From: Fidelibacterota bacterium
GTDB lineage: Bacteria; Fidelibacterota; Marinisomatia; Marinisomatales; TCS55
DNA length: 24,000 nt
Direction of reading: 5' to 3'
Assembly (NCBI GenBank): GCA_036228285.1
Contig: JAZAOA010000068.1
Coordinates: forward strand, 6,921-30,920
Below the pieces are notes generated by a model. That model did no database searches, was not told the DNA's origin, and saw nothing but the letters and a program-made list of their open reading frames with translations. Shown here one piece after another: positions 8,426 through 23,217 of this stretch; the stretch's first letter is position 1; each line of letters starts with the position of its first letter. The position numbers and the translations under genes were made by a program.

Positions 8426-9829
8426 CTATATTGCAAATTGTTGAATAATAGATGCAATTGAAGCTGTTAGTTTCTTTGCATATGGAATATGGATGAATTC
8501 ATTTGGGCCATGAGCATTAGACTGCGGACCAAGAATTCCAGTAATTACAAATTGTGCCTTCGGAAATTTTTCACCTAACATAGCCATAAACGGTATCGTT
8601 CCCCCTTCTCCCATAAATAAAGCAGGTTTTTTAAAGTAAGCTTGAGAAGCTTGTTGAATGGCAGTATCTAACCAAGGATCTAACTCTGGTGCATTCCATC
8701 CTGTAGCGGGCTCATCAAATTCTACAGTAATAGTTGCATCATATGGAGGGTTTTCTGTTAAAGCCTTATTCATAGCTTGCACAGCAATTTCTTTATCAAG
8801 AGTTGGAGGAATACGCATAGACAACTTTACTTCTGTATATGGACGTAGAACATTTCCACCGTCCTTTACCGCAGGAACTCCATCCATTCCAACTACTGAA
8901 AGAGCTGGTCTCCATGTTTGCCTGAGTGTTCCTTCAACTGGATCGCTTGTAGTAGACTTCATCGACTCATGCCATGGAAATTGGTCAAATTCTCCAGCTA
9001 ACTCATCTACCATCTTGTTTATATCTTCTATTCTTCTTTCCGGTATATCAACAACAAGATCATCAAGAATAATTTCTCCTGTTTTTTCATCTTCTAATCG
9101 AGAAAGTAGTTGTCGTAATACACGGAATGAAGATGGCACAACCCCGCTGGCAGAACCCGAATGCACTCCTTCATTTAAAACATCCACGCGTACTGTACAT
9201 CCAATGAGACCTCTTAAGGATGTAGTTGTCCAAAATTGCTCATAGTTTTGCGCGCCTGAATCAAGACAAACGACTAAATTAGGCTCGCCAATTAAAGAAG
9301 AACAATGATCCATATAAAAAGGCAAATCTGGTGATCCACTTTCTTCAGAAAATTCTATTAAAATTATGATCCTTGGATGATCTATATTCTGATCTTGTAA
9401 TGAGCGTACAACTGCCGTTGCAGCAAACATTGCATATCCATCATCTGCACCACCACGACCATAAAGTTTATCACCTTCAATAACAGGTTTCCATGGACCC
9501 AAGCCATCGTTCCAACCTTGCATTTCAGGTTGTTTATCCAAGTGCCCATACATTAAAATATTTCCCTTTATGTTTCCAGGGCAATCTATAATGATTAATG
9601 GTGTTCTTTTATCTTCTTGAAAAGTATGAACTGTACTACCATCTGGCTTATGTTTCTCTGCCCAATCTTTTGCTAATTTTAGTGCAGATGCCATATGTCC
9701 ATTATTAATCCATTCCGGATCAAAATCTGGTGATTTATTTGGAATCCGGATATAGTCTAACAATGTTGGGATAATATGTTTATCCCAAAATTTATCTACG
9801 TAGCTATCATTTTTTGAATGATTTATCAT
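8426..9829 (-). CDS. M20-family metallo-dipeptidase (CNDP/Dug1-like)
   Basis: 467 aa with M20 metal and catalytic motifs: YGHLDKQPE, GRGGADDGYAMF, the EE pair in EFSEESGS and a C-terminal HGPNEF. Confidence 0.85.
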   Translation of the reverse strand: MINHSKNDSYVDKFWDKHIIPTLLDYIRIPNKSPDFDPEWINNGHMASALKLAKDWAEKHKPDGSTVHTFQEDKRTPLIIIDCPGNIKGNILMYGHLDKQPEMQGWNDGLGPWKPVIEGDKLYGRGGADDGYAMFAATAVVRSLQDQNIDHPRIIILIEFSEESGSPDLPFYMDHCSSLIGEPNLVVCLDSGAQNYEQFWTTTSLRGLIGCTVRVDVLNEGVHSGSASGVVPSSFRVLRQLLSRLEDEKTGEIILDDLVVDIPERRIEDINKMVDELAGEFDQFPWHESMKSTTSDPVEGTLRQTWRPALSVVGMDGVPAVKDGGNVLRPYTEVKLSMRIPPTLDKEIAVQAMNKALTENPPYDATITVEFDEPATGWNAPELDPWLDTAIQQASQAYFKKPALFMGEGGTIPFMAMLGEKFPKAQFVITGILGPQSNAHGPNEFIHIPYAKKLTASIASIIQQFAI

Positions 9830-10059: not shown

Positions 10060-11532
10060 TTGCAATACTTAAGAAAAATAAAACCATTATACTTTATAAT
10101 GATGAATTTACTTTGTTCTGTATTTGCGCAAGAGCATCCAGGAATTCATAAACTTCAGCTAGAGTATTATAATAATAACTACAATGAATTATCTAGTCCA
10201 TATACAAACGAACACATTATAGATAAACAAAATCGTTCAAGTGGACCTAATCGAGAAGTTTTTGGTTACCACCCATATTGGATGGGGACCGCATGGCAAA
10301 ATTATAATTACAATCTAATATCTACTATTGCCTATTTTAGTGCAGAAGCAACTGCTCAAGGGAATCTAAGTAATCTTCATGGTTGGCCAGTGGCTGGTTT
10401 AATTAATTTGGCGCATGCAAATGGTGTTAATGTCGTGCTTTGTGTAACACTTTTTGATAGTGAAGATTTGATTACATTATTAAGCAATCCATCTAATAGA
10501 GAAAATCTAATTAATAATCTTTTAATACAGGTACAAGCTGGGAATGCTGATGGCGTAAATGTTGATTTTGAATCGTTCCCATCATCACAAAAACAAAATA
10601 TGGTCCAATTTATTACAGATCTTACTAACACATTTCACACGGAGATACCTGGTTCGCAAGTTACATTGGCAACACCAGCAGTTGACTGGAATGATGGATG
10701 GGATTACAATGCCCTCGCAACTATAAGTGATGGGTTATTTATTATGGGATATAATTACTATTATGGTGGAAGTTCAACCACTGGTCCAATTGCTCCGCTT
10801 TCTGGTAATGGAATTACTGTTTCTTGGACGTTAAATGACTATTTGAATAAAACAAATCATCAATATAATAAATTGATTCTTGGATGTCCATATTATGGCT
10901 TCGAATGGTCAGCTGCATCTGAATCTAGTGGATCACCTACTTTAGATTATGGTTCTGCAAAATTTTATTCTGAAATGGAAGGAAACGCATTGTCATATGG
11001 TAAACTTTGGGATGAATCTTCACAAACCCCATGGTATCGCTATCAAAATCCAAACTGGTATCAAGGATGGTATGATGATAGTTTATCACTGTCCCTTAAG
11101 TATGATTTTGCCATTGAAAATAACTTATTAGGAGTAGGCATGTGGGCTATGGGTTATGATGGAAATAATCCTGAACTTTGGGATCTATTATCTTCAAAAT
11201 TTATTACGAATGGTTTGCATGTATCTTCTCAAGATAGATTCACTTTACCAATTTCCTCTATGATTCATTCGCTTTATCCTAATCCATCAAACTCATCAAT
11301 TACATTAGATTTTTCATTAAGAAATAAAAATGATAATGCAATAATATCTATTTTTGATTTATTAGGACGTCCTGTAAAAAACGTAAACATCCTATCGAAT
11401 GGAAATGAAAATTATAAATGGATATGGGATGGGACAGATATGTTTAATCAAGAATTACCTGCAGGTATTTATTTTCTAACAATATCTGTTGATCAAAATA
11501 TAGAAAGTAGAAAAATCACATTATTAAAATAA
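10060..11532 (+). CDS. Secreted GH18 glycoside hydrolase (cortical-fragment-lytic / SleL-YaaH-like subgroup) with a T9SS type-A C-terminal sorting domain
   Basis: GH18 catalytic motif DGVNVDFE, plus the subgroup-typical FGYHPYW near the N-terminus and GVGMWAMGYD near the barrel end. The C-terminal ~85 aa (YPNPSNSSITLDF...IFDLLGRPV...AGIYFLTI...KITLLK) match the Por/T9SS CTD pattern. It has a signal-like N-terminus with a TTG start at 10060; an alternative ATG at 10099 gives a poorer signal peptide. Confidence 0.85.
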   Translation: MQYLRKIKPLYFIMMNLLCSVFAQEHPGIHKLQLEYYNNNYNELSSPYTNEHIIDKQNRSSGPNREVFGYHPYWMGTAWQNYNYNLISTIAYFSAEATAQGNLSNLHGWPVAGLINLAHANGVNVVLCVTLFDSEDLITLLSNPSNRENLINNLLIQVQAGNADGVNVDFESFPSSQKQNMVQFITDLTNTFHTEIPGSQVTLATPAVDWNDGWDYNALATISDGLFIMGYNYYYGGSSTTGPIAPLSGNGITVSWTLNDYLNKTNHQYNKLILGCPYYGFEWSAASESSGSPTLDYGSAKFYSEMEGNALSYGKLWDESSQTPWYRYQNPNWYQGWYDDSLSLSLKYDFAIENNLLGVGMWAMGYDGNNPELWDLLSSKFITNGLHVSSQDRFTLPISSMIHSLYPNPSNSSITLDFSLRNKNDNAIISIFDLLGRPVKNVNILSNGNENYKWIWDGTDMFNQELPAGIYFLTISVDQNIESRKITLLK

Positions 11533-12806
11533 TGAATTATTATTGTATCATATTTTTTGTACTTATAACAAATCTATTATTTTCTCAAACAGACAAATCT
11601 ATTCATCAAGTACAATCAAAATATTATAGTTCTATTCCCACTCCTCCAGTAGATAAAGTTAATATAAAAACTGGCTTAGATATTCTCTTAGATAAGAAAC
11701 AACACTTAATTATTGATAAAAAAATTGCACTTGTTACAAATCAAACTGGTGTTGATCAAAATGGAATTGCGAATTATAAAAAATTAATGGAATTGAAAAA
11801 AACAAATCTGAAAGTTGTTTTCTCACCTGAGCATGGGCTATTTGGAGAAACAGATTCAAAAGTTACATATGATGATGGAATTGAGAATTTACCAAAAGTA
11901 TATAGCTTATATGGCACAACACGAAAACCAACTAAAGAAATGCTAGATGGCATTGATATAATTATTTATGATATTCAAGATATTGGGGCACGATTTTATA
12001 CATATATATCAACTTTAGGTTTAGTTATGGAAGCGGCTGCAGCATTAAATATACCAGTGATAGTTTTAGATAGACCGAATCCAATACGGGGTGATATTAT
12101 TGAAGGACCATTACTAGATCTTGAATATCAATCATTTATTGGTAAATACCCTATACCTATTCGATACGGAGGAACCGTTGCTGAACTTGCTGAAAGAATT
12201 ATTAAGCAAAAATGGATTAATCCTATACCAAAGCTGACTGTAATTCCAATGGAAGGATGGCATTCATCATTATGGTATGATGAAACTACCCTACCATGGA
12301 TTAAACCTTCTCCAAATATTCCAGATTTGGAAACAGCATTAATTTATCCAGGAATGTGTTTATTAGAAGGAACAAATATAAGCGAAGGAAGAGGTACAAA
12401 TAACCCATTTAAATGGTTTGGGGCGCCATGGATAGATAATAAAGGATTATCCCAAGAACTAAATAAATTAAAATTACCAGGTGTTGTTTTTGTACCAAAA
12501 TCATTCACCCCAATATCAATTCCTGGAGTTTCAGATAGACCAAAATATGAAGATCAGCTATGCTATGGAATTGAAATTAGAATAATAGATAGAAATCAAT
12601 TTTACAGTATTAAAACAGGTGTAAGTGTATTAAAAAAAATAAATGAGCTATACCCGGATTCCCTAATTATTAAAGAAAAACGATTGAATAGACTATGGGG
12701 GAGTGACACGCTTCTAAAAACTTTACGAGATAATAAAGTGTCAAATAAATTTTTTTCAACAGAATTAATAACAATATTTTTATTAATGATTTTATTTATT
12801 AATTAG
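11532..12806 (+). CDS. namZ: DUF1343-family exo-beta-N-acetylmuramidase (NamZ-like), exported
   Basis: DUF1343 motifs are present: ALVTNQTGVD, FSPEHGLFG, YDIQDIGARFYTYISTL, LDRPNP and ISEGRGT. A signal-like N-terminus (MNYYCIIFFVLITNLLFSQ) is present. The ATG overlaps the GH18 stop by 1 nt (TAATG). Confidence 0.85.
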   Translation: MNYYCIIFFVLITNLLFSQTDKSIHQVQSKYYSSIPTPPVDKVNIKTGLDILLDKKQHLIIDKKIALVTNQTGVDQNGIANYKKLMELKKTNLKVVFSPEHGLFGETDSKVTYDDGIENLPKVYSLYGTTRKPTKEMLDGIDIIIYDIQDIGARFYTYISTLGLVMEAAAALNIPVIVLDRPNPIRGDIIEGPLLDLEYQSFIGKYPIPIRYGGTVAELAERIIKQKWINPIPKLTVIPMEGWHSSLWYDETTLPWIKPSPNIPDLETALIYPGMCLLEGTNISEGRGTNNPFKWFGAPWIDNKGLSQELNKLKLPGVVFVPKSFTPISIPGVSDRPKYEDQLCYGIEIRIIDRNQFYSIKTGVSVLKKINELYPDSLIIKEKRLNRLWGSDTLLKTLRDNKVSNKFFSTELITIFLLMILFIN

Positions 12807-12812
12807 ACGATT

Positions 12813-14336
12813 GTGATAATTGTTAAATCAAATAGAGTTTCATTTATAGCAAGAATCTTTAAAAAAAATATATTCATTCTATTAATTTTTTTTCTACAAT
12901 GTAGTAATCCTCCTACGCTATATAATGTATCAGGATATAAAAAGGCAATTGATCCAATTAGTTCGATTATACAATCTTCTGGGTTGCAAACAAATATTGG
13001 CATTAAGGTCATAGATTTAAAATCCAATGAAACTATATATGAATGGAATCCTAATTCATTATTTAACCCAGGAAGTAATGTTAAAATATATACATGCCTA
13101 GCAGCCTTAGCGCTTCTTGATAGCAATAAGGCTTTCTCAACATCAGTATATCAAGATTCAAACGCAATTTATTTAGTTGGTGGTGGTGATCCTCATCTTA
13201 CGATTGAACAGTTAGATACAATTTCTCAGACAATAAGTGATACAATAAAACTCCATATTGGAAGAGATTATTGGTTTTTAAATAACCGTTTAAGAATGCG
13301 ATCAGTGGATTTAGCAAAAAGAATTAACTATCTTGTTGTAGATAATTCTATTTTTGATAATCTCCATTATGGACCTGGATGGATGTGGGATGAAGGCTCC
13401 TGGTGGCATGCTCCTCAAATTAGTGCAATGTCCTTAAATGAAAATTGTATTGATTTTTATGTCTCACCTGGTAAACTTAAAAAACCTGCCATAATTAATA
13501 CTCACCCAAAAACAAATTATATAACTATTCAAAATGAATCAATTACAGTAAATGATACTACAAATTTTCAAAAATTTAGGATTGAACGTAGTTGGGAAAA
13601 TCAAAAAAATAATTTTACCATTTCTGGAAATATAATGGATACTTCTTCTGTGGATACTCTACAAAGAAATATTCATGACCCTAGTTTATTCGCGGGAACT
13701 GTATTTAAAGAAATGCTGGTAAGCAAAGGACTCAATATTAAGAAGATCATCAAAGGGTCTGTTCCTAAAAATGCAATGAAAATAATAGAGCATAAATCCA
13801 AACCTATTGTTCATTCACTTAATGGCTTAATGAAAAGAAGTGAAAATCTTACTGCTGAATTACTAGTAAAACATATTGGATCAACTTTTTTTGATACTGT
13901 AGGAACTTGGAATAATGGACTGCTTGCTATTAAAACGTTCTTACATGATACAGTAGGTGTTGATACAAATACATTTAGTTTAAGTGATGGATCAGGAATG
14001 TCAAGATACAATTATAGCAGCCCAAATCATTTTACATCTACTCTTTTATGGGCATATAATAATAAAAATATTCGTAAGCAATTTTTTCAAACATTTCCCA
14101 TTGGTGGATTTGACGGAACGCTGGAAGACAGATTGCAAAATATTGATACAACATCTACTGTTATCGCAAAAACTGGTTCTCTTGCTGGCGCTAGTTGTTT
14201 ATCGGGTTATATAATTTCTAATACTAACAATCCTATTGCCTTTTCGATTTTGATGAATGGATTTGTTAATTCATCTAAACCTTTTCGCGAACTTCAAGAT
14301 GAAATCGTTTATGCACTAACAAAAATAAAATTATGA
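12813..14336 (+). CDS. dacB: D-alanyl-D-alanine carboxypeptidase/endopeptidase, PBP4 (peptidase S13) family, exported
   Basis: Three active-site motifs in the correct order: SxxK (PGSNVK), SDGSGMSRYN (SxN region) and KTGSL. The size (~500 aa) is typical of PBP4. It has a hydrophobic signal-like N-terminus and a GTG start 6 nt after the namZ stop. Confidence 0.85.
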   Translation: MIIVKSNRVSFIARIFKKNIFILLIFFLQCSNPPTLYNVSGYKKAIDPISSIIQSSGLQTNIGIKVIDLKSNETIYEWNPNSLFNPGSNVKIYTCLAALALLDSNKAFSTSVYQDSNAIYLVGGGDPHLTIEQLDTISQTISDTIKLHIGRDYWFLNNRLRMRSVDLAKRINYLVVDNSIFDNLHYGPGWMWDEGSWWHAPQISAMSLNENCIDFYVSPGKLKKPAIINTHPKTNYITIQNESITVNDTTNFQKFRIERSWENQKNNFTISGNIMDTSSVDTLQRNIHDPSLFAGTVFKEMLVSKGLNIKKIIKGSVPKNAMKIIEHKSKPIVHSLNGLMKRSENLTAELLVKHIGSTFFDTVGTWNNGLLAIKTFLHDTVGVDTNTFSLSDGSGMSRYNYSSPNHFTSTLLWAYNNKNIRKQFFQTFPIGGFDGTLEDRLQNIDTTSTVIAKTGSLAGASCLSGYIISNTNNPIAFSILMNGFVNSSKPFRELQDEIVYALTKIKL

Positions 14337-15259
14337 TAAAACCAAAAAAATTAAAGACTGAGGCTACTATAGGTATAGTCAGCCCATCTTATTGGATTGA
14401 TGAAAAAATTTTAAAGAATACATCGGATATTTTTTTACAAAAAAATTACAGACTTGTTTATGGAAAGAATATCTATTCAAAAGATGGTCCATTCGCAGGG
14501 AGTCCTGAACAACGAGCGAATGATATTCATACAATGTTTTTGGATCCATCAATTGATGCAATTTTATGTGCTCGTGGAGGTTATGGTGCAAATAAAGTGA
14601 TTCCCTTACTTAATTATGAGTTGATAAAAAAACATCCAAAAATATTTATGGGGTACAGTGATATTACCGCTTATTTACTTTCGATAACCCAACAAACCGA
14701 ATTAGTAACATTTCATGGTCCTATGTTAACATCATATGAAAATGGAGATAGAGAATATAATTATAACCAAATGATAAATATTCTATCAGGTAATGGAGAT
14801 GAGCAAATTATTGTACCTAATCAAATGCAACCTAATATTCTAAAAGCTGGCAATGCAGTTGGTCCTTTATGGGGAGGAAATTTAACACTTATTATTAATC
14901 GTCTTGGAACGAGTGATGTATTTGATACGAAAGGTACGATCTTATTTTTAGAAGATTTGAATGAATATTTTTACTCTTTTGAACGTATGCTAATCCATTT
15001 AAAGAATGCTGGTGTTTTTGATAATATTTCAGGGCTTATTATTGGAGAATTAATCAATATAAAAGATGAAAAAGTTCCTTTCTCAAAATCTACTGATGAG
15101 ATTGTAATGGATATTTGTGGAAAAATGGATTTTCCTATTATCACAAATTTTCCATGCGGCCATGGTAAATACCAAGCAACTTTTCCTATATCAATTCCAG
15201 TAGAATTACAAATAGGAAAAACTGTGTCTATAAAACTACTTGAACCAGCTGTTCAATGA
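14333..15259 (+). CDS. ldcA: Muramoyltetrapeptide LD-carboxypeptidase LdcA (peptidase S66), cytoplasmic
   Basis: S66 motifs are present: ARGGYGA, the nucleophile region GYSDITA, WGGNL and the catalytic His in FPCGHG. No signal peptide. ATGA start/stop overlap with dacB. Confidence 0.9.
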   Translation: MIKPKKLKTEATIGIVSPSYWIDEKILKNTSDIFLQKNYRLVYGKNIYSKDGPFAGSPEQRANDIHTMFLDPSIDAILCARGGYGANKVIPLLNYELIKKHPKIFMGYSDITAYLLSITQQTELVTFHGPMLTSYENGDREYNYNQMINILSGNGDEQIIVPNQMQPNILKAGNAVGPLWGGNLTLIINRLGTSDVFDTKGTILFLEDLNEYFYSFERMLIHLKNAGVFDNISGLIIGELINIKDEKVPFSKSTDEIVMDICGKMDFPIITNFPCGHGKYQATFPISIPVELQIGKTVSIKLLEPAVQ

Positions 15260-15331
15260 TTGATATTCTGGAAATTAAATTAGTAAGCTTTAAGCAAATA
15301 GATACAAGTATATATTTAAAATTCCTTAATC

Positions 15332-16699
15332 ATGTCTCATTATAAAAAAGATCTTGGTTTAAAAGAATCTATTGCCATAGTAATTAGTAGGATAATTGGT
15401 TCAGGAATATTTCGTGTACCTGCATCAATTATGGCTCTTGTAGGATGTACATCGTTATTTGGAGTTGTTTGGATAATTGGTGGCTTAATTACAATCTTTG
15501 GTGCTGTTATTTACTCAGAACTATCAGCGATGATGCCAAAATCTGGGGGGCCATATGTTTTTTTAAAAGCAGCTTATGGACCATATATTGCTTTTATAAG
15601 AGGATGGGCAATGTTCTTTGTTTCAGAGACAGCATCCATCGTAGCAGTTGCATTGGTTTTTTCGGAATATATTAGTGCGATATGGGTAATTATTTATGGT
15701 CATCATTTTAATTTAATTACTATTTTTTTTCTATCATTGATTACTATATGGATTCTAACATTTATCAACTTGTTTGGTGTGAGACTTAGTGGAAAATTTC
15801 AGATTTTTTTTAGTATTCTAAAAATAACTGCTCTTGGAGGTATTATTGGAGCAACTCTTACAGGATATAATACTGGTAATATAGAAAATTTTAGCAATCC
15901 TTTATGGCCAGAAACATTTGGATGGCATACAGTACTTTCTGTTGGCGCAGCTTTGAGATATGCATTTTTTGCATTTAGCGGATGGGAAGGAGCAACCTAT
16001 ATTGCGGAAGAAGTAAAAGAGCCCCAACGAAACCTTCCTCTTTCTTTATTTATAGGTATTGCTGGAGTAATGCTGCTTTACTTAGGCGCTAATATTGGAT
16101 ATTTATATCAATTAGATGTTGAAGCAATTAAAGAAAATAAATGGGTTGCAACAGCAGCAATGAAAGTTGTTTTGGGAACATCCGGAGGTGTACTTATATC
16201 TATTGCTGTAGCAATAAACGCATTTGGTAATATCAGTACTCAAATACTAACCAAAAGTCGTACTTGGCATGCAATGGCCCGCGATGGTTTATTTTTTAAA
16301 CAATTCAAGGGTCTTCATTCAAAATATAATACTCCAAATAATGCTCTGATTGGTCAAGGAATTTGGGCAACTGTTTTGTTACTTTTTTCTGTTTTAGCTA
16401 CTTATAAACAATCAGGTATTTCAGGAACAAACACTTATGAAATGATTATTGATTTTTTTTCTGCTACAAGTACAATATTTAACATACTGACTTTTTCCTC
16501 TATATATATACTGAGAAAAAAATGGAAAGATAAAAACAGGCCATACAAAGCACTTTTTTATCCATGGAGTATGATTATCGTTCTTTTATTATATAGTTCT
16601 TTTTTAATAATTACTTTATATACTGCTTTTATCCCATCAATAATTGGTTTTGCATTAACTTTGAGTGGAACTTTTTTCTATAGGAAAATAAGTAAATAA
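15332..16699 (+). CDS. APC-superfamily amino acid permease (LAT/SteT-like)
   Basis: 455 aa with about 12 predicted TM helices. The N-terminal APC motif is IGSGIF, followed by SELSAMMPKSGGPYVFLKAAYG. It lies 72 nt downstream of ldcA on the same strand. Confidence 0.8.
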   Translation: MSHYKKDLGLKESIAIVISRIIGSGIFRVPASIMALVGCTSLFGVVWIIGGLITIFGAVIYSELSAMMPKSGGPYVFLKAAYGPYIAFIRGWAMFFVSETASIVAVALVFSEYISAIWVIIYGHHFNLITIFFLSLITIWILTFINLFGVRLSGKFQIFFSILKITALGGIIGATLTGYNTGNIENFSNPLWPETFGWHTVLSVGAALRYAFFAFSGWEGATYIAEEVKEPQRNLPLSLFIGIAGVMLLYLGANIGYLYQLDVEAIKENKWVATAAMKVVLGTSGGVLISIAVAINAFGNISTQILTKSRTWHAMARDGLFFKQFKGLHSKYNTPNNALIGQGIWATVLLLFSVLATYKQSGISGTNTYEMIIDFFSATSTIFNILTFSSIYILRKKWKDKNRPYKALFYPWSMIIVLLLYSSFLIITLYTAFIPSIIGFALTLSGTFFYRKISK

Positions 16700-16718
16700 A
16701 ATGCTGATTTATTTTTAG

Positions 16719-17897
16719 TTAATAATAATTGGAAATCCAGGATAATGCCAATGCAGTTAATAATCCAAAATATATTCCTATTATATTTCCTAAAACACCC
16801 ATAAGTAACCCTACTGGTGCAAGAGACTTTTGATATACTGATGCGACTATTGGAGCGGTTACAACTCCTCCTATATTGGCTTGACTACTTGTAGCTATTA
16901 AAAACATTGGTACTTTTAATAATCTTCCTCCCATAAATAAGATTGCTGCATGTATAGTAATCCAACATATACCTACTAGTAAAAATACAGGAGCATATAA
17001 AATTGAAGTAAAATTTGCTTTTGCACCAATAGTAGCTAATAATAAATACAAGAAAAAATTGCCAATATGTGAAGCACCGGCATTTTCCAATTCAGAAAAT
17101 GGCGTAAGAGATAAAACGATTCCCAATATACTTACTATGATAATTGTCCAACCAAAGCTGGTAATAATTCTTCCAAGATCTGGTAACCATTCACCAATTT
17201 TCAGAGATATATAGCCACCTATAAAACCAATGGATATAATAGCAATCAAATCAATAAATCGTGTTGGTCTTTTTTTGGATTCAATGTCGCTCATTTGGAT
17301 ACTAATATTTTCAATTAGAGAAGATTCAACGCCATTCCAGCGATCAATTCGTTCCTGATAGGCTGAAAAGAAAATTACTATACCCATCCAACCATATCCA
17401 ACTAGTGTATCCACAATAATCATTATTCCAAATAAATCATCTGGCGTTCCAATTGATGTACCTACAGCAACCATATTTGCACTTCCACCAATCCAACTTC
17501 CTGATAAAGCTCCCAATCCTTTCCATGAATCATTAGGAAGCCAATTGGCAAATATGGAAAACGATACTATTCCTCCAATTACAATACCTAATGTGGCAAT
17601 TAACATTATTAATAGAGCTTTCGAGCTAAGTTTTTTTAATGCATCAAAATTTGACGATAGTAAAAGCAATATTAATGAACATGGAAGTAAATAAGTTCTT
17701 ATCCAATCATAAAGAACTGATGATTCTGGAAGTATTCCCAGTGTTGTTGAAAACATTGGAAGGAAATATATCCAAATAGCAGTTGGTAAATACTTAAAAA
17801 ATCCTGAAAACTTAGGTTTAGAATTGAGATAGTATATGAGACTTATTATAGCTATTAAATAGACTAAAATAGACATTGGATCTTGCAAGGGAATCAT
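16719..17897 (-). CDS. DUF819-family polytopic membrane protein (uncharacterised transporter candidate)
   Basis: 392 aa, entirely hydrophobic helices. The N-terminal pattern (FKYLPTAIWIYFLPMF...LLPCSLILLLLSSNFDALKKLSSKALLIMLIATLGIVIGG) resembles YjcL/DUF819 proteins as I recall them. ATGA overlap with the anmK stop. Confidence 0.65.
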   Translation of the reverse strand: MIPLQDPMSILVYLIAIISLIYYLNSKPKFSGFFKYLPTAIWIYFLPMFSTTLGILPESSVLYDWIRTYLLPCSLILLLLSSNFDALKKLSSKALLIMLIATLGIVIGGIVSFSIFANWLPNDSWKGLGALSGSWIGGSANMVAVGTSIGTPDDLFGIMIIVDTLVGYGWMGIVIFFSAYQERIDRWNGVESSLIENISIQMSDIESKKRPTRFIDLIAIISIGFIGGYISLKIGEWLPDLGRIITSFGWTIIIVSILGIVLSLTPFSELENAGASHIGNFFLYLLLATIGAKANFTSILYAPVFLLVGICWITIHAAILFMGGRLLKVPMFLIATSSQANIGGVVTAPIVASVYQKSLAPVGLLMGVLGNIIGIYFGLLTALALSWISNYY

Positions 17898-19009
17898 ACC
17901 GTCATCTTTCCTAATATTACAGGCTTATTTGCTCCAGTAACTGATGGTATATTCCCAGGGATACCTTTAACATGGGCTACAGCGAAAATAGCAAAACCTA
18001 GAGCTTCTTTGCCATCAACAGATATATCTAATTTATTTGATGATAACACTTGAATTGGGTTAAATAGATCTTTTAAGTTATTCATTATGCATTTATGATG
18101 AACACCGCCTCCGCTGACGATCATCTTACTTACATTTTGATCTTGTATAAATTTCTCACACGCTAAAAATATAGTTTTTGCAGTAAAAAAAGATAGTGTT
18201 GATAATTGATCTATAAAATCAAGACTATTAAGATCATTATTATATTTGTCTAACCAATTCTTGCCGAACTCATCTCTACCGGTTGATTTTGGCGGAATTA
18301 GATCAAAATATGAATGATCTAACCATTTAGATACTAATTCATTATCTATATTTCCTTTAAGAGCAAGTTGTCCCCTATTATCAAATCCATCTTTAAATTT
18401 ATTAAGATATGCTTCATCTAATAAAGACATTCCAGGGCCTGTGTCAAAACCAACAATTTCCTGATTAATTTCTGATGGCAACAATGTTACATTTGCTATT
18501 CCACCAATATTTAATGCAATTACTGAAGACTCATGATTCCGAAATAACCACTCATCTATTTTTGGCATTAATGGTGCTCCAGTACCACCAGCATCAATAT
18601 CCGCATTTCTAAAATCTGAAATTACAGGAACGCTTAATTTTTTTGCCATATGATGTGGAGCGCCTATCTGTAAAGATAATTTTCCACTTATATGATTAAT
18701 TGTCTGTCCATGAGATCCAATGAGTTCAATATTATTTATTTTCTTTGATTGTAAGTAATTAAACAATGTATCAGCGTACCATTGGCCAAGATAATCATTT
18801 AATTTGAAATGGTCTTTCCCTGGATTATATACTGCTTGTCTAATTTGTTCTTTTAGATCTATAGGATATGGAATACATACTTCGTTAATTATTTGATAAT
18901 GCACATTATCATTTAGTTGTATGTCTGCAATAACAATATCTAAACCATCCATAGATGTTCCTGTCATCAAACCTGCAGTACGTATTGTTTCTTTAAAAAA
19001 TAAATCCAC
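17894..19009 (-). CDS. anmK: Anhydro-N-acetylmuramic acid kinase AnmK
   Basis: N-terminal GLMTGTSMDGLDI (compare the E. coli GVMSGTSLDGVD type motif), GGIAN, and C-terminal VSGGGVHH. The 371-aa length is typical. GTG start 6 nt after the upstream stop. No signal peptide. Confidence 0.9.
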   Translation of the reverse strand: MDLFFKETIRTAGLMTGTSMDGLDIVIADIQLNDNVHYQIINEVCIPYPIDLKEQIRQAVYNPGKDHFKLNDYLGQWYADTLFNYLQSKKINNIELIGSHGQTINHISGKLSLQIGAPHHMAKKLSVPVISDFRNADIDAGGTGAPLMPKIDEWLFRNHESSVIALNIGGIANVTLLPSEINQEIVGFDTGPGMSLLDEAYLNKFKDGFDNRGQLALKGNIDNELVSKWLDHSYFDLIPPKSTGRDEFGKNWLDKYNNDLNSLDFIDQLSTLSFFTAKTIFLACEKFIQDQNVSKMIVSGGGVHHKCIMNNLKDLFNPIQVLSSNKLDISVDGKEALGFAIFAVAHVKGIPGNIPSVTGANKPVILGKMTV

Positions 19010-19015
19010 AATACT

Positions 19016-21931
19016 TTAATTAAATCGAAGTATAGATTTATTTAAAGTATTATGAAATTTTCTACGCACCTGTTTAATGCCAGGATTATTTCGAGTTGGA
19101 TATACTCGATTTGTAAGTAATACTACTACTAGCTCTTGCTCTGGATCTATCCAAAAAGAAGTACCTGTATAGCCTAAATGACCAAATGCTTTATCAGAAA
19201 AATAATCACCTGCACTACTTGTACCATCTCGATCTGGCCTATCCCAACCATATCCTCTGTTTGCTTCATTTACTGTACTCTGTCTTGAAGTAAATAATGA
19301 TATCAACTCTTTATCAATAATTTTTTTATCTCCTATCATTCCATCATTTAATAACATTTGACTATACTTACCAAGATCCTCTGCATTAGAAAATAATCCT
19401 GCATGAGCAGATATTCCGCCAAGCAAATTTGCATTTTCATCATGAACATATCCGTGAGCAGTTTTTCTAGGATATAGATCATAGGATAATGATTTCATCG
19501 GACCGATCAATTCTGATGCAATGCCAGCAATTTTTCTTCTGAGCGAATTCTTTGATGTTCCAATTGGCACAACTGTTCTTTCAGTTGGTGGGATGTCTTT
19601 CCATACATTTGGTGGCGGATTATAAAATGTATTATTCATTCCAAGAGGTGAATAAAACCAACTTTTACCAAGTGCATGGAGATTATTACCGCCTACTCTT
19701 TCTAAAATTGTTCCTAGTAATATCATTCCAAGATCACTGTATTTGTATTCACTACCTGGTTTATATGTGAGTCTTCGATTAATTATATTATCAAGTACCT
19801 CTCCCCTTCCTCTGTATTTACTTTCAAGAAAATATCGATGATAAGCACTAAGTCCAGACTCATGAATTAATAAATGGCGAATGGTAATTGTATCTTTTCC
19901 TGATTGATGAAAACCTGGAAAATAATCATTAATAGGTTGATCAAGATAAATCTCTTTATCATTAACTAACTTCATGATTATTGGAGTAGCAGATACTACT
20001 TTTGTTATTGATGCAAGATCAAAAATAGTTTTTGTGGTAACCTCTTTCGATTTATGATATGTATGATATCCAAAACCTTTAGATATGATTGTATTTCCAT
20101 TTTTCGAAATATAAACTTGTGCACCTGGGAATACTTTAGCTTCTATTGCGCTATCTATAACTGATAGAGAGTAAGAAATATCTAACTTATCAATTATGGA
20201 TTCTTCACGATACACAAGAACTTGGCTGCCTCTAATAAATTGATTATTTAAGTCAACAGGCAAGCGTCCTGTTATATTATTATTAGTTAGTAAAGCATTG
20301 GCAGCAGCCTTTACCAGAACACTACCATATCCAAATGCAGCAATATATGTATCAATATATTCGTAATCTGGTAAATACGGACTACCAAAGCTAGTTACAA
20401 TAAATTGAATTCCTTTTTTATGTAATTTTTTCAATAATTCTGCGTAACTGGGATCAATAGTTGCGATTCCTTTATTCATACGAATTCGTACAACTATTGA
20501 TATGAATGCTAAATCAACATTTTTTAATTTATCTACTATTTCATTAATTTTTTTATCATTTACTTTTTCAGTTATAATAATTTCCATTAAATCTGGATAA
20601 GAACTATTCAACTGATTTTTCATAGGCAACAAATACCTTTGAGAATTTTTATCTTCAGTAATTGATAAGTGCGCAATATTCTTATAATCAGAAATTTTAT
20701 TAAGAAGATCATTTTTATCTTTTACAACAGTAATAGATAACTGAGCCATCTTACTTGCTATATTTAAATGTTTAGGATTACCAATTATCAAATTACTTTT
20801 TTGCCAATCTCTTTTTCCTTTATCTGAGAATAGATTCATTTCTTCCTTTGCCAACCAAATTCTCTCTACTGATTCATCAATCCTTTCTTCCGATATTCTT
20901 CCAGATAGCACTGCTTCTTTTATTGCATGAATGGTTGAATCCACATCAAGAGGTAATAAAATTATATCTGCACCTGCCTCTACTGCTCTCACACACGCCT
21001 CGGAAGACTTGATGTTATTTAAAGCGCCCATCTCCATAGCGTCTGTTACGACTAAACCATCAAACTTTAATTTTTTCCTCAATAACCTATTTGTAATTAC
21101 GGAAGATAAAGTAGCTGGTTTTTTAGAGCGATCAATGCCCGGTGTTATTACATGTGCTGTCATTACCATTTTAACACCATTTTTTATAGAAGATTTAAAT
21201 GGAGGTAACTCAATTTTTGAAAAATCTCTTCTATTTCCTGGAATTACTGGCAATCTAGTATGACTATCTGTTGATGTATTACCATGTCCTGGAAAATGTT
21301 TAACACAAGCGTAAACATTTTGCTCTTGAATTCCCCGAATAAATGAATTTCCAAAAATACTGACAAGACGTGGGTCATCACCATACGATCTAAAATTAAT
21401 AATTGGATTATCTGGATTATTATTTACATCCATTACTGGTGCAAATATCATATTTACTCCAAAGGCTTTTGCTTCCTTGGCAGTAATTACACCCTGTTCA
21501 TATGCCAACACATTTCTTCCTGTTGCTGCTACAGCCATGTTTGTTGGAAATAGTGTCGCTCCATCATACCATTGTCCGAGACCTCTTTCATAGTCAGCAG
21601 CAATAAATAATGGGGTCTCCGACCAACTTTGCGCTATTTGTATTCGATTAAATGTTTCTTCTAATCCACCACCATAAACAACTGCCCCTCCTATTCCCAA
21701 TTCATTAATCCATCTATGAAATTTTTTATATTCAAATGTTGTTTCATTAGTAATGTCGCCTTTTAAGCGAAACATAATCATCTGAGCTATTTTTTTATCA
21801 AGTGAAAGTTTTTGCCAAGGATCCTCAACAATTTCTATCTCTTCTTTGCTTATAAAAGTTTGACACCCAGATATCAACAAGCACAGAAATATGATGATAA
21901 GTTTGGATAAAGTAATTTGATTGTCTTTCAT
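19016..21931 (-). CDS. nagZ: Lipoprotein fusion: GH3 beta-N-acetylglucosaminidase (NagZ, two-domain YbbD type) plus a C-terminal beta-lactamase-fold serine hydrolase (AmiE/YbbE-like MurNAc-L-Ala amidase candidate)
   Basis: 971 aa with a lipobox LISGC at residues ~19-23. GH3/NagZ motifs are KHFPGHGNTSTDSH (Asp-His dyad) and the nucleophile region GLVVTDAMEMG. A middle domain of ~200 aa follows. The C-terminal ~380 aa carry SxxK (ASITK), a Tyr motif (YSDLG) and HLGYTGTS in place of KTG. Confidence 0.9.
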   Translation of the reverse strand: MKDNQITLSKLIIIFLCLLISGCQTFISKEEIEIVEDPWQKLSLDKKIAQMIMFRLKGDITNETTFEYKKFHRWINELGIGGAVVYGGGLEETFNRIQIAQSWSETPLFIAADYERGLGQWYDGATLFPTNMAVAATGRNVLAYEQGVITAKEAKAFGVNMIFAPVMDVNNNPDNPIINFRSYGDDPRLVSIFGNSFIRGIQEQNVYACVKHFPGHGNTSTDSHTRLPVIPGNRRDFSKIELPPFKSSIKNGVKMVMTAHVITPGIDRSKKPATLSSVITNRLLRKKLKFDGLVVTDAMEMGALNNIKSSEACVRAVEAGADIILLPLDVDSTIHAIKEAVLSGRISEERIDESVERIWLAKEEMNLFSDKGKRDWQKSNLIIGNPKHLNIASKMAQLSITVVKDKNDLLNKISDYKNIAHLSITEDKNSQRYLLPMKNQLNSSYPDLMEIIITEKVNDKKINEIVDKLKNVDLAFISIVVRIRMNKGIATIDPSYAELLKKLHKKGIQFIVTSFGSPYLPDYEYIDTYIAAFGYGSVLVKAAANALLTNNNITGRLPVDLNNQFIRGSQVLVYREESIIDKLDISYSLSVIDSAIEAKVFPGAQVYISKNGNTIISKGFGYHTYHKSKEVTTKTIFDLASITKVVSATPIIMKLVNDKEIYLDQPINDYFPGFHQSGKDTITIRHLLIHESGLSAYHRYFLESKYRGRGEVLDNIINRRLTYKPGSEYKYSDLGMILLGTILERVGGNNLHALGKSWFYSPLGMNNTFYNPPPNVWKDIPPTERTVVPIGTSKNSLRRKIAGIASELIGPMKSLSYDLYPRKTAHGYVHDENANLLGGISAHAGLFSNAEDLGKYSQMLLNDGMIGDKKIIDKELISLFTSRQSTVNEANRGYGWDRPDRDGTSSAGDYFSDKAFGHLGYTGTSFWIDPEQELVVVLLTNRVYPTRNNPGIKQVRRKFHNTLNKSILRFN

Positions 21932-22026
21932 TTCATTGCAAAGTTAAATGCTCTCAATCAATCATTCTACATTCAATTCTATTCTTGTTTAAGTTAATCA
22001 CTAAAAATAGATTACAAACATCATTA

Positions 22027-23217
22027 ATGAACTCTAAAGAAAAAGAATATATTGTTGTTGGAGTTGATGGAGGTGGATCTAAAGTATCTGCTGGCATTAT
22101 AGAATCTAATGACAATATAACTTTTACTATCAAATCATTTTCACATCAATACTATAATGAATCAAAAGAATACATTTCAGACTATTCTCCAAAAGATATG
22201 GCTACTCAATTATATGAACATAGTAAAGAGGAATATAATATAAATAATGAAGAAAAACTTCAAGGTAAGGAAATTATAAAATCATTTCATGACACCATCA
22301 TTAATCTAAACGTTGACAAACCCATTTTATTGGGAGTTGGAATGGTAGGTTTAAAAACAAAGGATTTGAGAGGTATTGGAGCAATTGCAAACGGGCCAAG
22401 AATGCCAAAATTTTGTATGGAACTAGAAAACGAATTAAAACAATCCAATGTAAAATTATACAAACCAATTCAATATATTGGAAGTGATGCAGATAACTGT
22501 GGAATTGGAGAAGAATTCGGGAAAGATGGTTTATTTAAAGATGTTCAAAATAGTTACTATATAGGTGGCGGTACAGGTACGGCAGATGCATTAAAACTTC
22601 AAAATAAATTAATACCTTTTGATAATATATCTTCCTGGATTGTTAAGACATGGGAAATATTAAATGATAAAAATATTTGCATGGAAAAATATACTTCCCT
22701 AAAAGGCATACAATCTTTGTATAGTCACTATTCCAACATACCAATTCATACACTTCAGGATAACGCAATTTATGCAAGTGAAATTTTTTTAAGAGCATTA
22801 GAAAATGAACAAGCTGCTTTATTAACTTATCAAGATTTAACAAAATATATGTCTAAATTAATTATAGAACGTATAGAAACAGTGTTTTCTGGTTGGCAAA
22901 ACAATTTTAAACTGTTAAATCCTAACCATAGTATTTTGGATAATAATCACTCATACAGAAATATTTTATTGCAACGTATAATTATAGGTCAAGGTCTAGG
23001 TGAATTATTTCATTTTTCAAAAAATACACCTTTACTTTGGGAGCCATTGCATAATAATATATATAACATGATTGTAAAATCTAAAGCATTACCATTAGAA
23101 GCAAAAAATTCACTCTTAGAAAATAAAACTCTTAAAAAAGATTTTATTATGACATCCAACTTAGATAATTCAGCTCTTTTAGGAGCAGGGATCTCAGCAG
23201 CGCTGAATACATTATGA
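22027..23217 (+). CDS. BadF/BadG/BcrA/BcrD-type ATPase, N-acetylhexosamine (GlcNAc/MurNAc) kinase-like, atypically long
   Basis: Phosphate-1 motif VGVDGGGSK, then GVGMVGL, GSDADNCGIGE and the adenosine motif YYIGGGTGTA. The start is moved to ATG 22027 (MNSKEKEYIVVGVDGGG), because the track start at 21985 is TTG. At ~397 aa it is roughly 100 aa longer than the NagK/MurK-type kinases I recall. Confidence 0.75.
   Translation: MNSKEKEYIVVGVDGGGSKVSAGIIESNDNITFTIKSFSHQYYNESKEYISDYSPKDMATQLYEHSKEEYNINNEEKLQGKEIIKSFHDTIINLNVDKPILLGVGMVGLKTKDLRGIGAIANGPRMPKFCMELENELKQSNVKLYKPIQYIGSDADNCGIGEEFGKDGLFKDVQNSYYIGGGTGTADALKLQNKLIPFDNISSWIVKTWEILNDKNICMEKYTSLKGIQSLYSHYSNIPIHTLQDNAIYASEIFLRALENEQAALLTYQDLTKYMSKLIIERIETVFSGWQNNFKLLNPNHSILDNNHSYRNILLQRIIIGQGLGELFHFSKNTPLLWEPLHNNIYNMIVKSKALPLEAKNSLLENKTLKKDFIMTSNLDNSALLGAGISAALNTL

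Follow-up and report, generated by a model that had tools for sequence, protein, structure and literature searches.

A DUF819 membrane protein encoded next to AnmK in a Marinimicrobia cell-wall salvage locus is a candidate carrier for peptidoglycan fragments

How does a bacterium that trims peptidoglycan fragments outside the cytoplasm deliver the remaining sugar to a cytoplasmic kinase? The question is raised by a 24,000-nt stretch of contig JAZAOA010000068.1 (assembly GCA_036228285.1; hereafter the window, with a G+C content of ~32%) from a member of Candidatus Marinimicrobia or Neomarinimicrobiota, the phylum equivalent to SAR406/Fidelibacterota. Here a gene for a DUF819 membrane protein directly follows the gene for AnmK, which acts on 1,6-anhydro-N-acetylmuramic acid (anhMurNAc). 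We conclude that this DUF819 protein is very probably a carrier for some cell-wall fragment, because both the local gene block and several separate contexts of the family point to the cell wall. The favoured substrate is free anhMurNAc, and probably N-acetylmuramic acid (MurNAc) too; this assignment is tentative, and we give it a probability of roughly 0.45.

The DUF819 gene (16719-17897) is the last of three co-directional minus-strand genes, after a gene for a NagZ fusion protein (19016-21931) and anmK (17894-19009), with spacings of 6 nt and then -4 nt:

19016..21931, minus strand: lipoprotein of 971 aa in which a GH3 NagZ-type beta-N-acetylglucosaminidase is fused to a beta-lactamase-fold (AmiE/PBP4B-like) domain (PF00933, E 4.7e-84; PF00144, E 1.7e-60)
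17894..19009, minus strand: AnmK (PF03702, E 8.7e-93 over 358 residues; best NCBIfam match the AnmK equivalog with 357.9 bits, under the cut-off of 387)
17894..17897, minus strand: ATGA stop/start overlap of anmK and the DUF819 gene, read directly and preceded by a purine-rich AGGAAAG
16719..17897, minus strand: DUF819 membrane carrier of 392 aa (PF05684, E 1.6e-91, residues 14-386)

The minus-strand sequence at the junction is aagatgacggtATGAttccc. The anmK reading frame has a GTG start and a TGA stop, and the ATG of the DUF819 gene lies in the same ATGA, in good agreement with the preliminary description of this locus, which had placed the DUF819 start inside the anmK stop. That description had also taken the DUF819 gene to end the unit, and this was confirmed: its 3' neighbour is a convergent gene for an APC permease (15332-16699, plus strand), and the two stop codons are 19 nt apart. 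Scans of the window for promoters (48 sites vs 49.0 in shuffled sequence) and terminators (4 sites vs 3.3) were uninformative on operon boundaries, and a search of the same stretch for Rfam families and tRNAs gave no matches.

What kind of protein does the last gene encode? The match to PF05684 scored 307.6 bits (cut-off 27) and spanned profile positions 3-377 of 379; it was the only match at E <= 0.001, with none to the 2-hydroxycarboxylate transporter (2HCT) family, the major facilitator superfamily (MFS) or the sodium:solute symporters (SSF). Being neither MFS nor SSF nor a phosphotransferase system (PTS) component, the protein therefore falls outside the families of AmpG, MurT and MurP. 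An AlphaFold2 model based on 90 diverse homologues reached a pLDDT of 94.8 and a pTM of 0.91, where 24 close homologues had given a pLDDT of only 67.5. The model was helical throughout with no extra domain, and the PF05684 match covers residues 14-386 of 392, which bears out the earlier view of an all-membrane protein without a soluble domain. When the model was compared with the PDB using Foldseek, the top 18 matches were all CitS (5a1s, 5xat; E 1.6e-5 to 2.9e-4, TMq 0.46-0.66), so that a likeness to a known secondary transporter was indeed found. The next matches were the Na+/H+ antiporters NHA2 and NapA, the beta subunit of oxaloacetate decarboxylase (OAD-beta) and the Asp/Ala exchanger AspT. 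Two hairpin-tip motifs, GSWIGGSANM (133-142) and SQANIGG (338-344), are nearly invariant across the family: among the 90 diverse homologues no substitution occurs at G137, G138 or G343, and conservation reaches 90% or more at N141, S338, A340 and G344. Aligning the N-terminal half with the C-terminal half by hhalign gave a non-significant E of 0.26, with both hairpin motifs falling in register. Judged from the model, the DUF819 protein is a bona fide secondary carrier of the CitS-like class, which moves carboxylates or amino acids by an elevator mechanism. GltS and AAEx transport carboxylates, and (anh)MurNAc belongs to the 2-alkoxy-propionates.

The CitS-like result agrees with published modelling, in which DUF819 was placed in the re-entrant cation-proton antiporter/anion transporter (CPA/AT) class, with its N-terminus outside, alongside GltS and AAEx (PMC8396727). 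DUF819 shares with CitS, a 2HCT protein, the fold class and two re-entrant hairpins with glycine-rich tips, and an elevator mechanism and carboxylate substrates would be expected for it by analogy. The two differ in that identity is 15-16%, that DUF819 forms the separate family PF05684 without a Pfam 2HCT match, and that DUF819 was modelled with 10 helices and the N-terminus out, whereas CitS has 11 helices and the N-terminus in (PMC8396727). Among the papers found to mention DUF819, none assigns a function to it, in line with the preliminary description. Two DUF819 proteins were found as fusions, P0184 (827 aa) with an N-terminal beta-lactamase-fold domain and P0219 (835 aa) with an Amidohydro_2 domain; if the N-terminus of DUF819 is outside as modelled, these hydrolase domains would be periplasmic, at the mouth of the carrier.

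Is the pairing with AnmK peculiar to the window? A metagenome scan gave at least 80 AnmK loci (numbered with the prefix L, as are the DUF819 loci below) with 36-99% identity to the window AnmK; the counts given here refer to the loci listed. At 60-99% AnmK identity, a DUF819 gene lies immediately 3' of AnmK in 18/18 loci, and 20 of 21 related loci retain the ATGA overlap, with AnmK identity as low as 60% and DUF819 identity as low as 69%. Two architectures occur. In that of the window, NagZ/AmiE-AnmK-DUF819 is followed by convergent APC-LdcA-PBP4-NamZ genes; in the other, an alternative GlmU gene comes after DUF819, and LdcA-APC-PBP4-NamZ are not adjacent. DUF819 stays with the sugar-branch enzyme AnmK through this rearrangement. 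The alternative GlmU (TIGR03991, 419 bits, above cut-off) was located at L081:9234-10457, L084:4348-5552 (where it is called as two genes) and L088:9360-10589, and is not present at this position in the window.

At 50-53% AnmK identity the gene order was AmiA-like - AnmK - U32 - NagB-like; one lineage instead had SSF symporter - AnmK - U32 - NagB. Below 48% identity the dominant order was MurQ - AnmK - GlmM, without a transporter. The lineage with the SSF symporter next to AnmK (L090/L114) has kept the APC-LdcA pair, and here the carrier of the sugar slot seems to have undergone non-orthologous displacement. The APC permease is 77% identical between the window and L090:12556-13932, despite 50% for AnmK and 33% for LdcA; for a gene next to ldcA such conservation is unusually high, and it suggests a fixed role for this permease in the peptide or amino-acid branch. 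We asked whether the U32 gene might encode an unrecognised recycling enzyme and rejected this, as the gene scores as the tRNA hydroxylase TrhP (531.6 bits vs a cut-off of 534).

We next turn to the genes around the unit. The ~13-kb block at 10060-23217 consists of nine consecutive genes, six with peptidoglycan-salvage family assignments, one orphan and two transporters. Besides the three-gene unit it holds the plus-strand genes for GH18, NamZ, PBP4/DacB, LdcA and the APC permease, which converge on the unit, and the orphan:

10060..11532, plus strand: GH18 glycosidase with a type IX secretion system (T9SS) C-terminal sorting domain (PF00704, E 8e-32; PF18962, E 1.4e-9)
11532..12806, plus strand: NamZ-type exo-beta-N-acetylmuramidase with an N-terminal signal-like segment (PF07075, E 2.9e-75; PF20732, E 1.3e-41)
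12813..14336, plus strand: PBP4/DacB-type DD-carboxypeptidase/endopeptidase (PF02113, E 2e-79; TIGR00666, 223.5, above the cut-off of 107.8)
14333..15259, plus strand: LdcA-type LD-carboxypeptidase without a signal sequence (PF02016, PF17676; NCBIfam muramoyltetrapeptide carboxypeptidase, E 2.8e-40, below cut-off)
15332..16699, plus strand: APC-superfamily permease, after ldcA and convergent with the DUF819 gene (PF13520, E 1.7e-55)
22027..23217, plus strand, divergent from the NagZ fusion: orphan of ~396 aa with a DGGGSK motif, a possible sugar kinase (weak ROK match, E 5e-4)

Family scans of the 24,000-nt window found no MurQ or AmpG among its genes, and no epimerase or YkfC-type gene. The gene content of the block suggests scavenging of cell-wall material, which fits the finding that the first cultured member of the Marinimicrobia lives on muropeptides of other bacteria (PMC11652737).

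On which side of the inner membrane would the fragments be trimmed? The NagZ fusion begins with MKDNQITLSKLIIIFLCLLISGC (...LLISGC), which, judged by eye, is a lipoprotein-type signal; by the same criterion NamZ and PBP4 have hydrophobic N-termini, and AnmK and LdcA do not. Going by these N-terminal sequences, it is reasonable to place the trimming of cell-wall fragments outside the cytoplasm, which supports the earlier premise of a periplasmic NagZ and amidase. The amidase activity would reside in the beta-lactamase-fold domain at the C-terminus of the fusion, for which the best NCBIfam match was PBP4B (E 7e-53, below cut-off).

From the arrangement of the genes, the conserved overlap, the fold and the families to which the neighbours belong, all of them observed, we infer a route that includes a periplasmic location of the hydrolases, a direction of transport, a coupling ion and a substrate. 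The T9SS-exported GH18 enzyme, NamZ, PBP4 and the lipoprotein NagZ/beta-lactamase-fold fusion would strip N-acetylglucosamine (GlcNAc) and the stem peptide from muropeptides in the periplasm or outside the cell. The DUF819 protein in the inner membrane would then act as an ion-coupled, elevator-type secondary carrier for a small anionic peptidoglycan product. Through it the lactyl-carboxylate sugar would cross the membrane, and cytoplasmic AnmK would turn the imported sugar into MurNAc-6-phosphate. A carrier would be needed because the trimming would be periplasmic, given the lipoprotein signal of the NagZ fusion, and AnmK has no signal. We favour (anh)MurNAc as the substrate because the linkage to AnmK, GlmU, NagB-like and MurQ genes persists, because the fold is that of carboxylate carriers, and because the APC-LdcA pair is the likelier route for peptides or amino acids.

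How do the DUF819 proteins of this phylum relate to one another? They form one clade with two sub-clades, A and B. Sub-clade A comprises the window protein and all AnmK-linked relatives (70-79% identity), plus L001 and L082. At L001 the DUF819 gene lies between an AmiA-like and a NagB-like gene, and both flanks are homologous to AnmK flanks elsewhere in Marinimicrobia. Near the hairpins, Marinimicrobia proteins carry the signature G146/T147, I158, N280 and K357, at positions that K/E, P, Y and P occupy in most other clades. As sequence features, these residues are compatible with a shift in substrate specificity, and they do not separate sub-clade A from sub-clade B. Sub-clade B adjoins SBP_bac_5/Opp-type genes. 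In other Marinimicrobia (L086:3949-12221, L085:5739-9179, L003, L004), DUF819 was found among SBP_bac_5, OppB, an MFS_3 gene and OppC, or after SBP_bac_5 and a conserved 106-aa open reading frame that has no family match.

Beyond the phylum, a scan with a 26-sequence alignment, limited to one genome per species, gave at least 80 DUF819 loci in many phyla; the figures below refer to the species-level loci listed. An enrichment of DUF819 beside anmK, nagZ and murQ, which the preliminary description had put forward as a check, did not appear: a MurQ gene was found near DUF819 in 1/80 loci, and AnmK, NagZ and NamZ were found within 8 kb in none of the 80. Clustering of the neighbours returned one strongly recurrent partner, an enolase-superfamily dipeptide-epimerase-like gene (19/80 loci), whose best NCBIfam match is L-Ala-D/L-Glu epimerase and which has a 4-nt overlap with the DUF819 start in at least 10 loci. 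The region 5' of the epimerase gene often encodes secreted NlpC/P60 proteins with an N_NLPC_P60 + SH3b1 + SH3b2 architecture, which we take to be that of YkfC-type gamma-D-Glu-L-diamino-acid endopeptidases; such YkfC-type genes occur in at least 8/80 loci. The YkfC-type/epimerase/DUF819 arrangement is present in Omnitrophota, Planctomycetota, Geobacterales and Elusimicrobia; it appears to be an undescribed module for uptake and catabolism of murein peptides. This operon was recorded at L043, L044 (4096-7751), L059, L061, L066 and L078, and also at L041, L045, L048-L050, L053, L054, L060, L070 and L072. Other partners are a D-aminopeptidase/AmpH-like beta-lactamase-fold gene (L006, L015) and, in Neisseria meningitidis, an M15 peptidase paired with DUF819 (PMC12671195). 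Most of the loci have no recurrent neighbour.

The single MurQ neighbour lies in a metagenome-assembled genome of the acidobacterial Thermoanaerobaculia (L025, 2548-4805), where the MurQ orthologue (43% identity to Marinimicrobia MurQ, E 3e-76) is divergent from DUF819 and ~130 nt away. One such neighbour in 80 loci compares with a chance expectation of roughly 0.05, by our own rough estimate, and gives an independent hint of a sugar-side link. Taken together, the DUF819 family is tied to cell-wall fragments, mostly on the peptide side. A broader proposal, that the whole family consists of unrecognised CitS-fold carriers for cell-wall debris with clade-specific substrates, namely (anh)MurNAc in Marinimicrobia and L-Ala-gamma-D-Glu-type compounds in Omnitrophota, Planctomycetota and Geobacterales, is possible, though we hold it to be less likely than not.

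The import of anhMurNAc by the DUF819 protein, as the preliminary description had proposed, is thus supported in part: the carrier fold, the salvage block and the pairing with AnmK in 18/18 loci speak for it, and the family-wide neighbourhoods do not. Several observations weigh against it. Across the family, the absence of AnmK, NagZ and NamZ is joined by the fact that the only recurrent partners are peptide-branch genes. Seen from AnmK, an adjacent transporter is absent at most loci, ~30 of the 80 having the MurQ-AnmK-GlmM order without one, and the pairing with DUF819 may reflect one evolutionary event. The displacement argument from the SSF symporter beside AnmK is drawn from a single lineage. 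Within Marinimicrobia, the closest relative outside the AnmK-linked set (L082, 77% identical to L084) lies beside arginase and amidohydrolase genes, and sub-clade B adjoins SBP_bac_5/Opp-type genes yet carries the same signature residues as sub-clade A. Moreover, AmpG or MurT could be encoded elsewhere in the genome, beyond the window. The translational coupling, which had been read as a strong pointer, is also weaker evidence than claimed. In sister lineages (L089:7001-9468, L090:7001-9426, L110-L114) AnmK overlaps the TrhP-like U32 gene by the same 4 nt, across two architectures, so the overlap is not specific to the pathway, and coupling counts for little in compact genomes.

Could the protein instead import the peptide product, either the free stem peptide or L-Ala-gamma-D-Glu, for cytoplasmic LdcA and peptidases, with the adjacency to AnmK reflecting a shared salvage operon only? 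We regard this as a serious rival, though a less probable one. The epimerase-like gene is the strongest partnership of the family, often with YkfC-type NlpC/P60 endopeptidases upstream, and the AmpH-like partners, the beta-lactamase-fold fusion P0184, the M15 peptidase pair of N. meningitidis and the SBP_bac_5/Opp genes beside the nearest Marinimicrobia relatives point the same way. The fold relatives GltS and AspT carry amino acids, and in the window itself the beta-lactamase-fold domain of the first gene in the operon would free the peptide in the periplasm, with LdcA lacking a signal. Against this, both architectures keep DUF819 with AnmK, in one of them together with the alternative GlmU, and not with LdcA, whose conserved neighbour is the APC permease whether or not DUF819 is nearby. 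The epimerase-linked DUF819 proteins are just 37-44% identical to the window protein, belong to a separate clade and differ near the hairpins, and the genes that mark those operons, for an epimerase and a YkfC-type enzyme, are missing from the window. A hybrid of the two substrates, in which DUF819 imports a sugar-peptide conjugate such as (anh)MurNAc-L-Ala-D-Glu and the AnmK- and epimerase-type partners act downstream, would unify both conserved cytoplasmic partners, and secreted gamma-D-Glu endopeptidases would generate such fragments. We consider it very improbable: the periplasmic amidase-like domain of the window operon should split sugar from peptide before import, a cytoplasmic AmpD-type amidase was seen at none of the loci examined, and the substrate would probably be large for a CitS-type pocket.

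A substrate from outside these fragments, for instance D-lactate from MurQ, D-alanine or an unrelated nutrient, is unlikely but deserves mention; the position of the DUF819 gene would then be an accident frozen by the overlap. The 4-nt junction of AnmK with the TrhP-like gene shows that such an overlap can join AnmK to an unrelated function, and the many DUF819 loci without a recurrent neighbour, the arginase, molybdopterin enzyme and amidohydrolase genes around L082 and the Amidohydro_2 fusion P0219 would be in keeping with a broader range of small carboxylates or amino acids, as would the exchange of lactate by 2HCT family members. What speaks against it is the number of separate cell-wall contexts, namely the AnmK clade, L001, L025, the epimerase/YkfC operons, the beta-lactamase-fold partners and the Neisseria M15 pair, along with the 13-kb block, the other genes of which mostly belong to cell-wall related families. 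Import of (anh)MurNAc remains the reading we prefer for the window protein.

How would such a carrier compare with known systems? DUF819 resembles AmpG in its proposed role, the import of lytic-transglycosylase products that are then recycled by way of AnmK, but AmpG is an MFS permease for the disaccharide GlcNAc-anhMurNAc and its peptides, whereas DUF819 has no MFS domain and its sugar would be fully trimmed in the periplasm beforehand. In Tannerella, AmpG was excluded for free anhMurNAc, and MurT was proposed as a possible anhMurNAc carrier (PMC7670621). MurT of Tannerella forsythia (murTKQ) is a secondary carrier for free MurNAc with its gene beside that of the first cytoplasmic kinase, as DUF819 is beside AnmK. 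We considered whether this known non-PTS MurNAc carrier might itself be a DUF819 protein and rejected the idea, as MurT is described as a member of the sodium symporter superfamily, although elsewhere the same paper calls it MFS (PMC5790795). DUF819 has no SSF (PF00474) domain, MurT being compared by description only; the Marinimicrobia lineage with an SSF symporter beside AnmK offers a parallel to MurT.

The mur cluster of B. subtilis and murQ-murP-yfeW of E. coli are similar to the window locus in that NagZ, a beta-lactamase-fold amidase and NamZ are encoded with a transporter. Both murQ-murR-murP-amiE-nagZ-namZ of B. subtilis and the E. coli cluster encode a MurNAc transporter, the PTS protein MurP, which phosphorylates on uptake; the window locus has no PTS, and a separate AnmK kinase and DUF819 would fill this role. 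The YkfC-type/epimerase operons of other DUF819 clades are in turn reminiscent of ykfABCD (B. subtilis) and mpaA-ycjG/mppA (E. coli), with DUF819 in the position of the transporter. Those systems use Opp-type ABC transporters, and the window differs from them in having neither type of gene.

Inner-membrane carriers for MurNAc or anhMurNAc are known in few bacteria, namely MurP, MurT and, for the disaccharide, AmpG. Marinimicrobia are among the most abundant bacteria of the dark ocean. For Rhodothermus and mycobacteria, recent work calls the MurNAc/anhMurNAc carrier unknown. Importers of recycling products are already known, and the DUF819 fold would be new among them. If the proposal is correct, it would provide a function for a family with over 2000 clusters, bring a new fold into the recycling toolkit and make DUF819 a metagenome marker for peptidoglycan scavenging. 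If it also holds family-wide, it would mean an AmpG- and PTS-independent route of peptidoglycan scavenging in abundant ocean bacteria.

Three further observations concern genes nearby or in related clusters. The orphan at 22027-23217 is kept beside the NagZ fusion at 53-98% identity in L092-L109, and its likely true start is MNSKEKEY, the start in the list of open reading frames being 14 codons too early. Beyond the weak ROK match it had no Pfam or NCBIfam match, and neither its single sequence nor a profile matched any PDB entry. Of 379 homologues, the 120 listed carry neither a telling name nor a Pfam domain; on these grounds an identity as a MurK-type kinase was not established. The orphan may be the missing kinase for MurNAc or GlcNAc. 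A 773-aa protein, the central part of which is glucosamine-6-phosphate deaminase-like (PRK02122) and the remainder without a family match, recurs in Marinimicrobia recycling clusters (L089:9471-11792, L001:2197-3942, L126). Finally, the minus strand of the window at 5506-9829 encodes an M20 peptidase, a DUF302 protein, a ROK-family kinase and a DASS-type Na+/anion symporter (Na_sulph_symp/CitMHS). This group is a possible second salvage unit, and its pair of ROK kinase and DASS-type carrier is a candidate for another acidic-sugar route.

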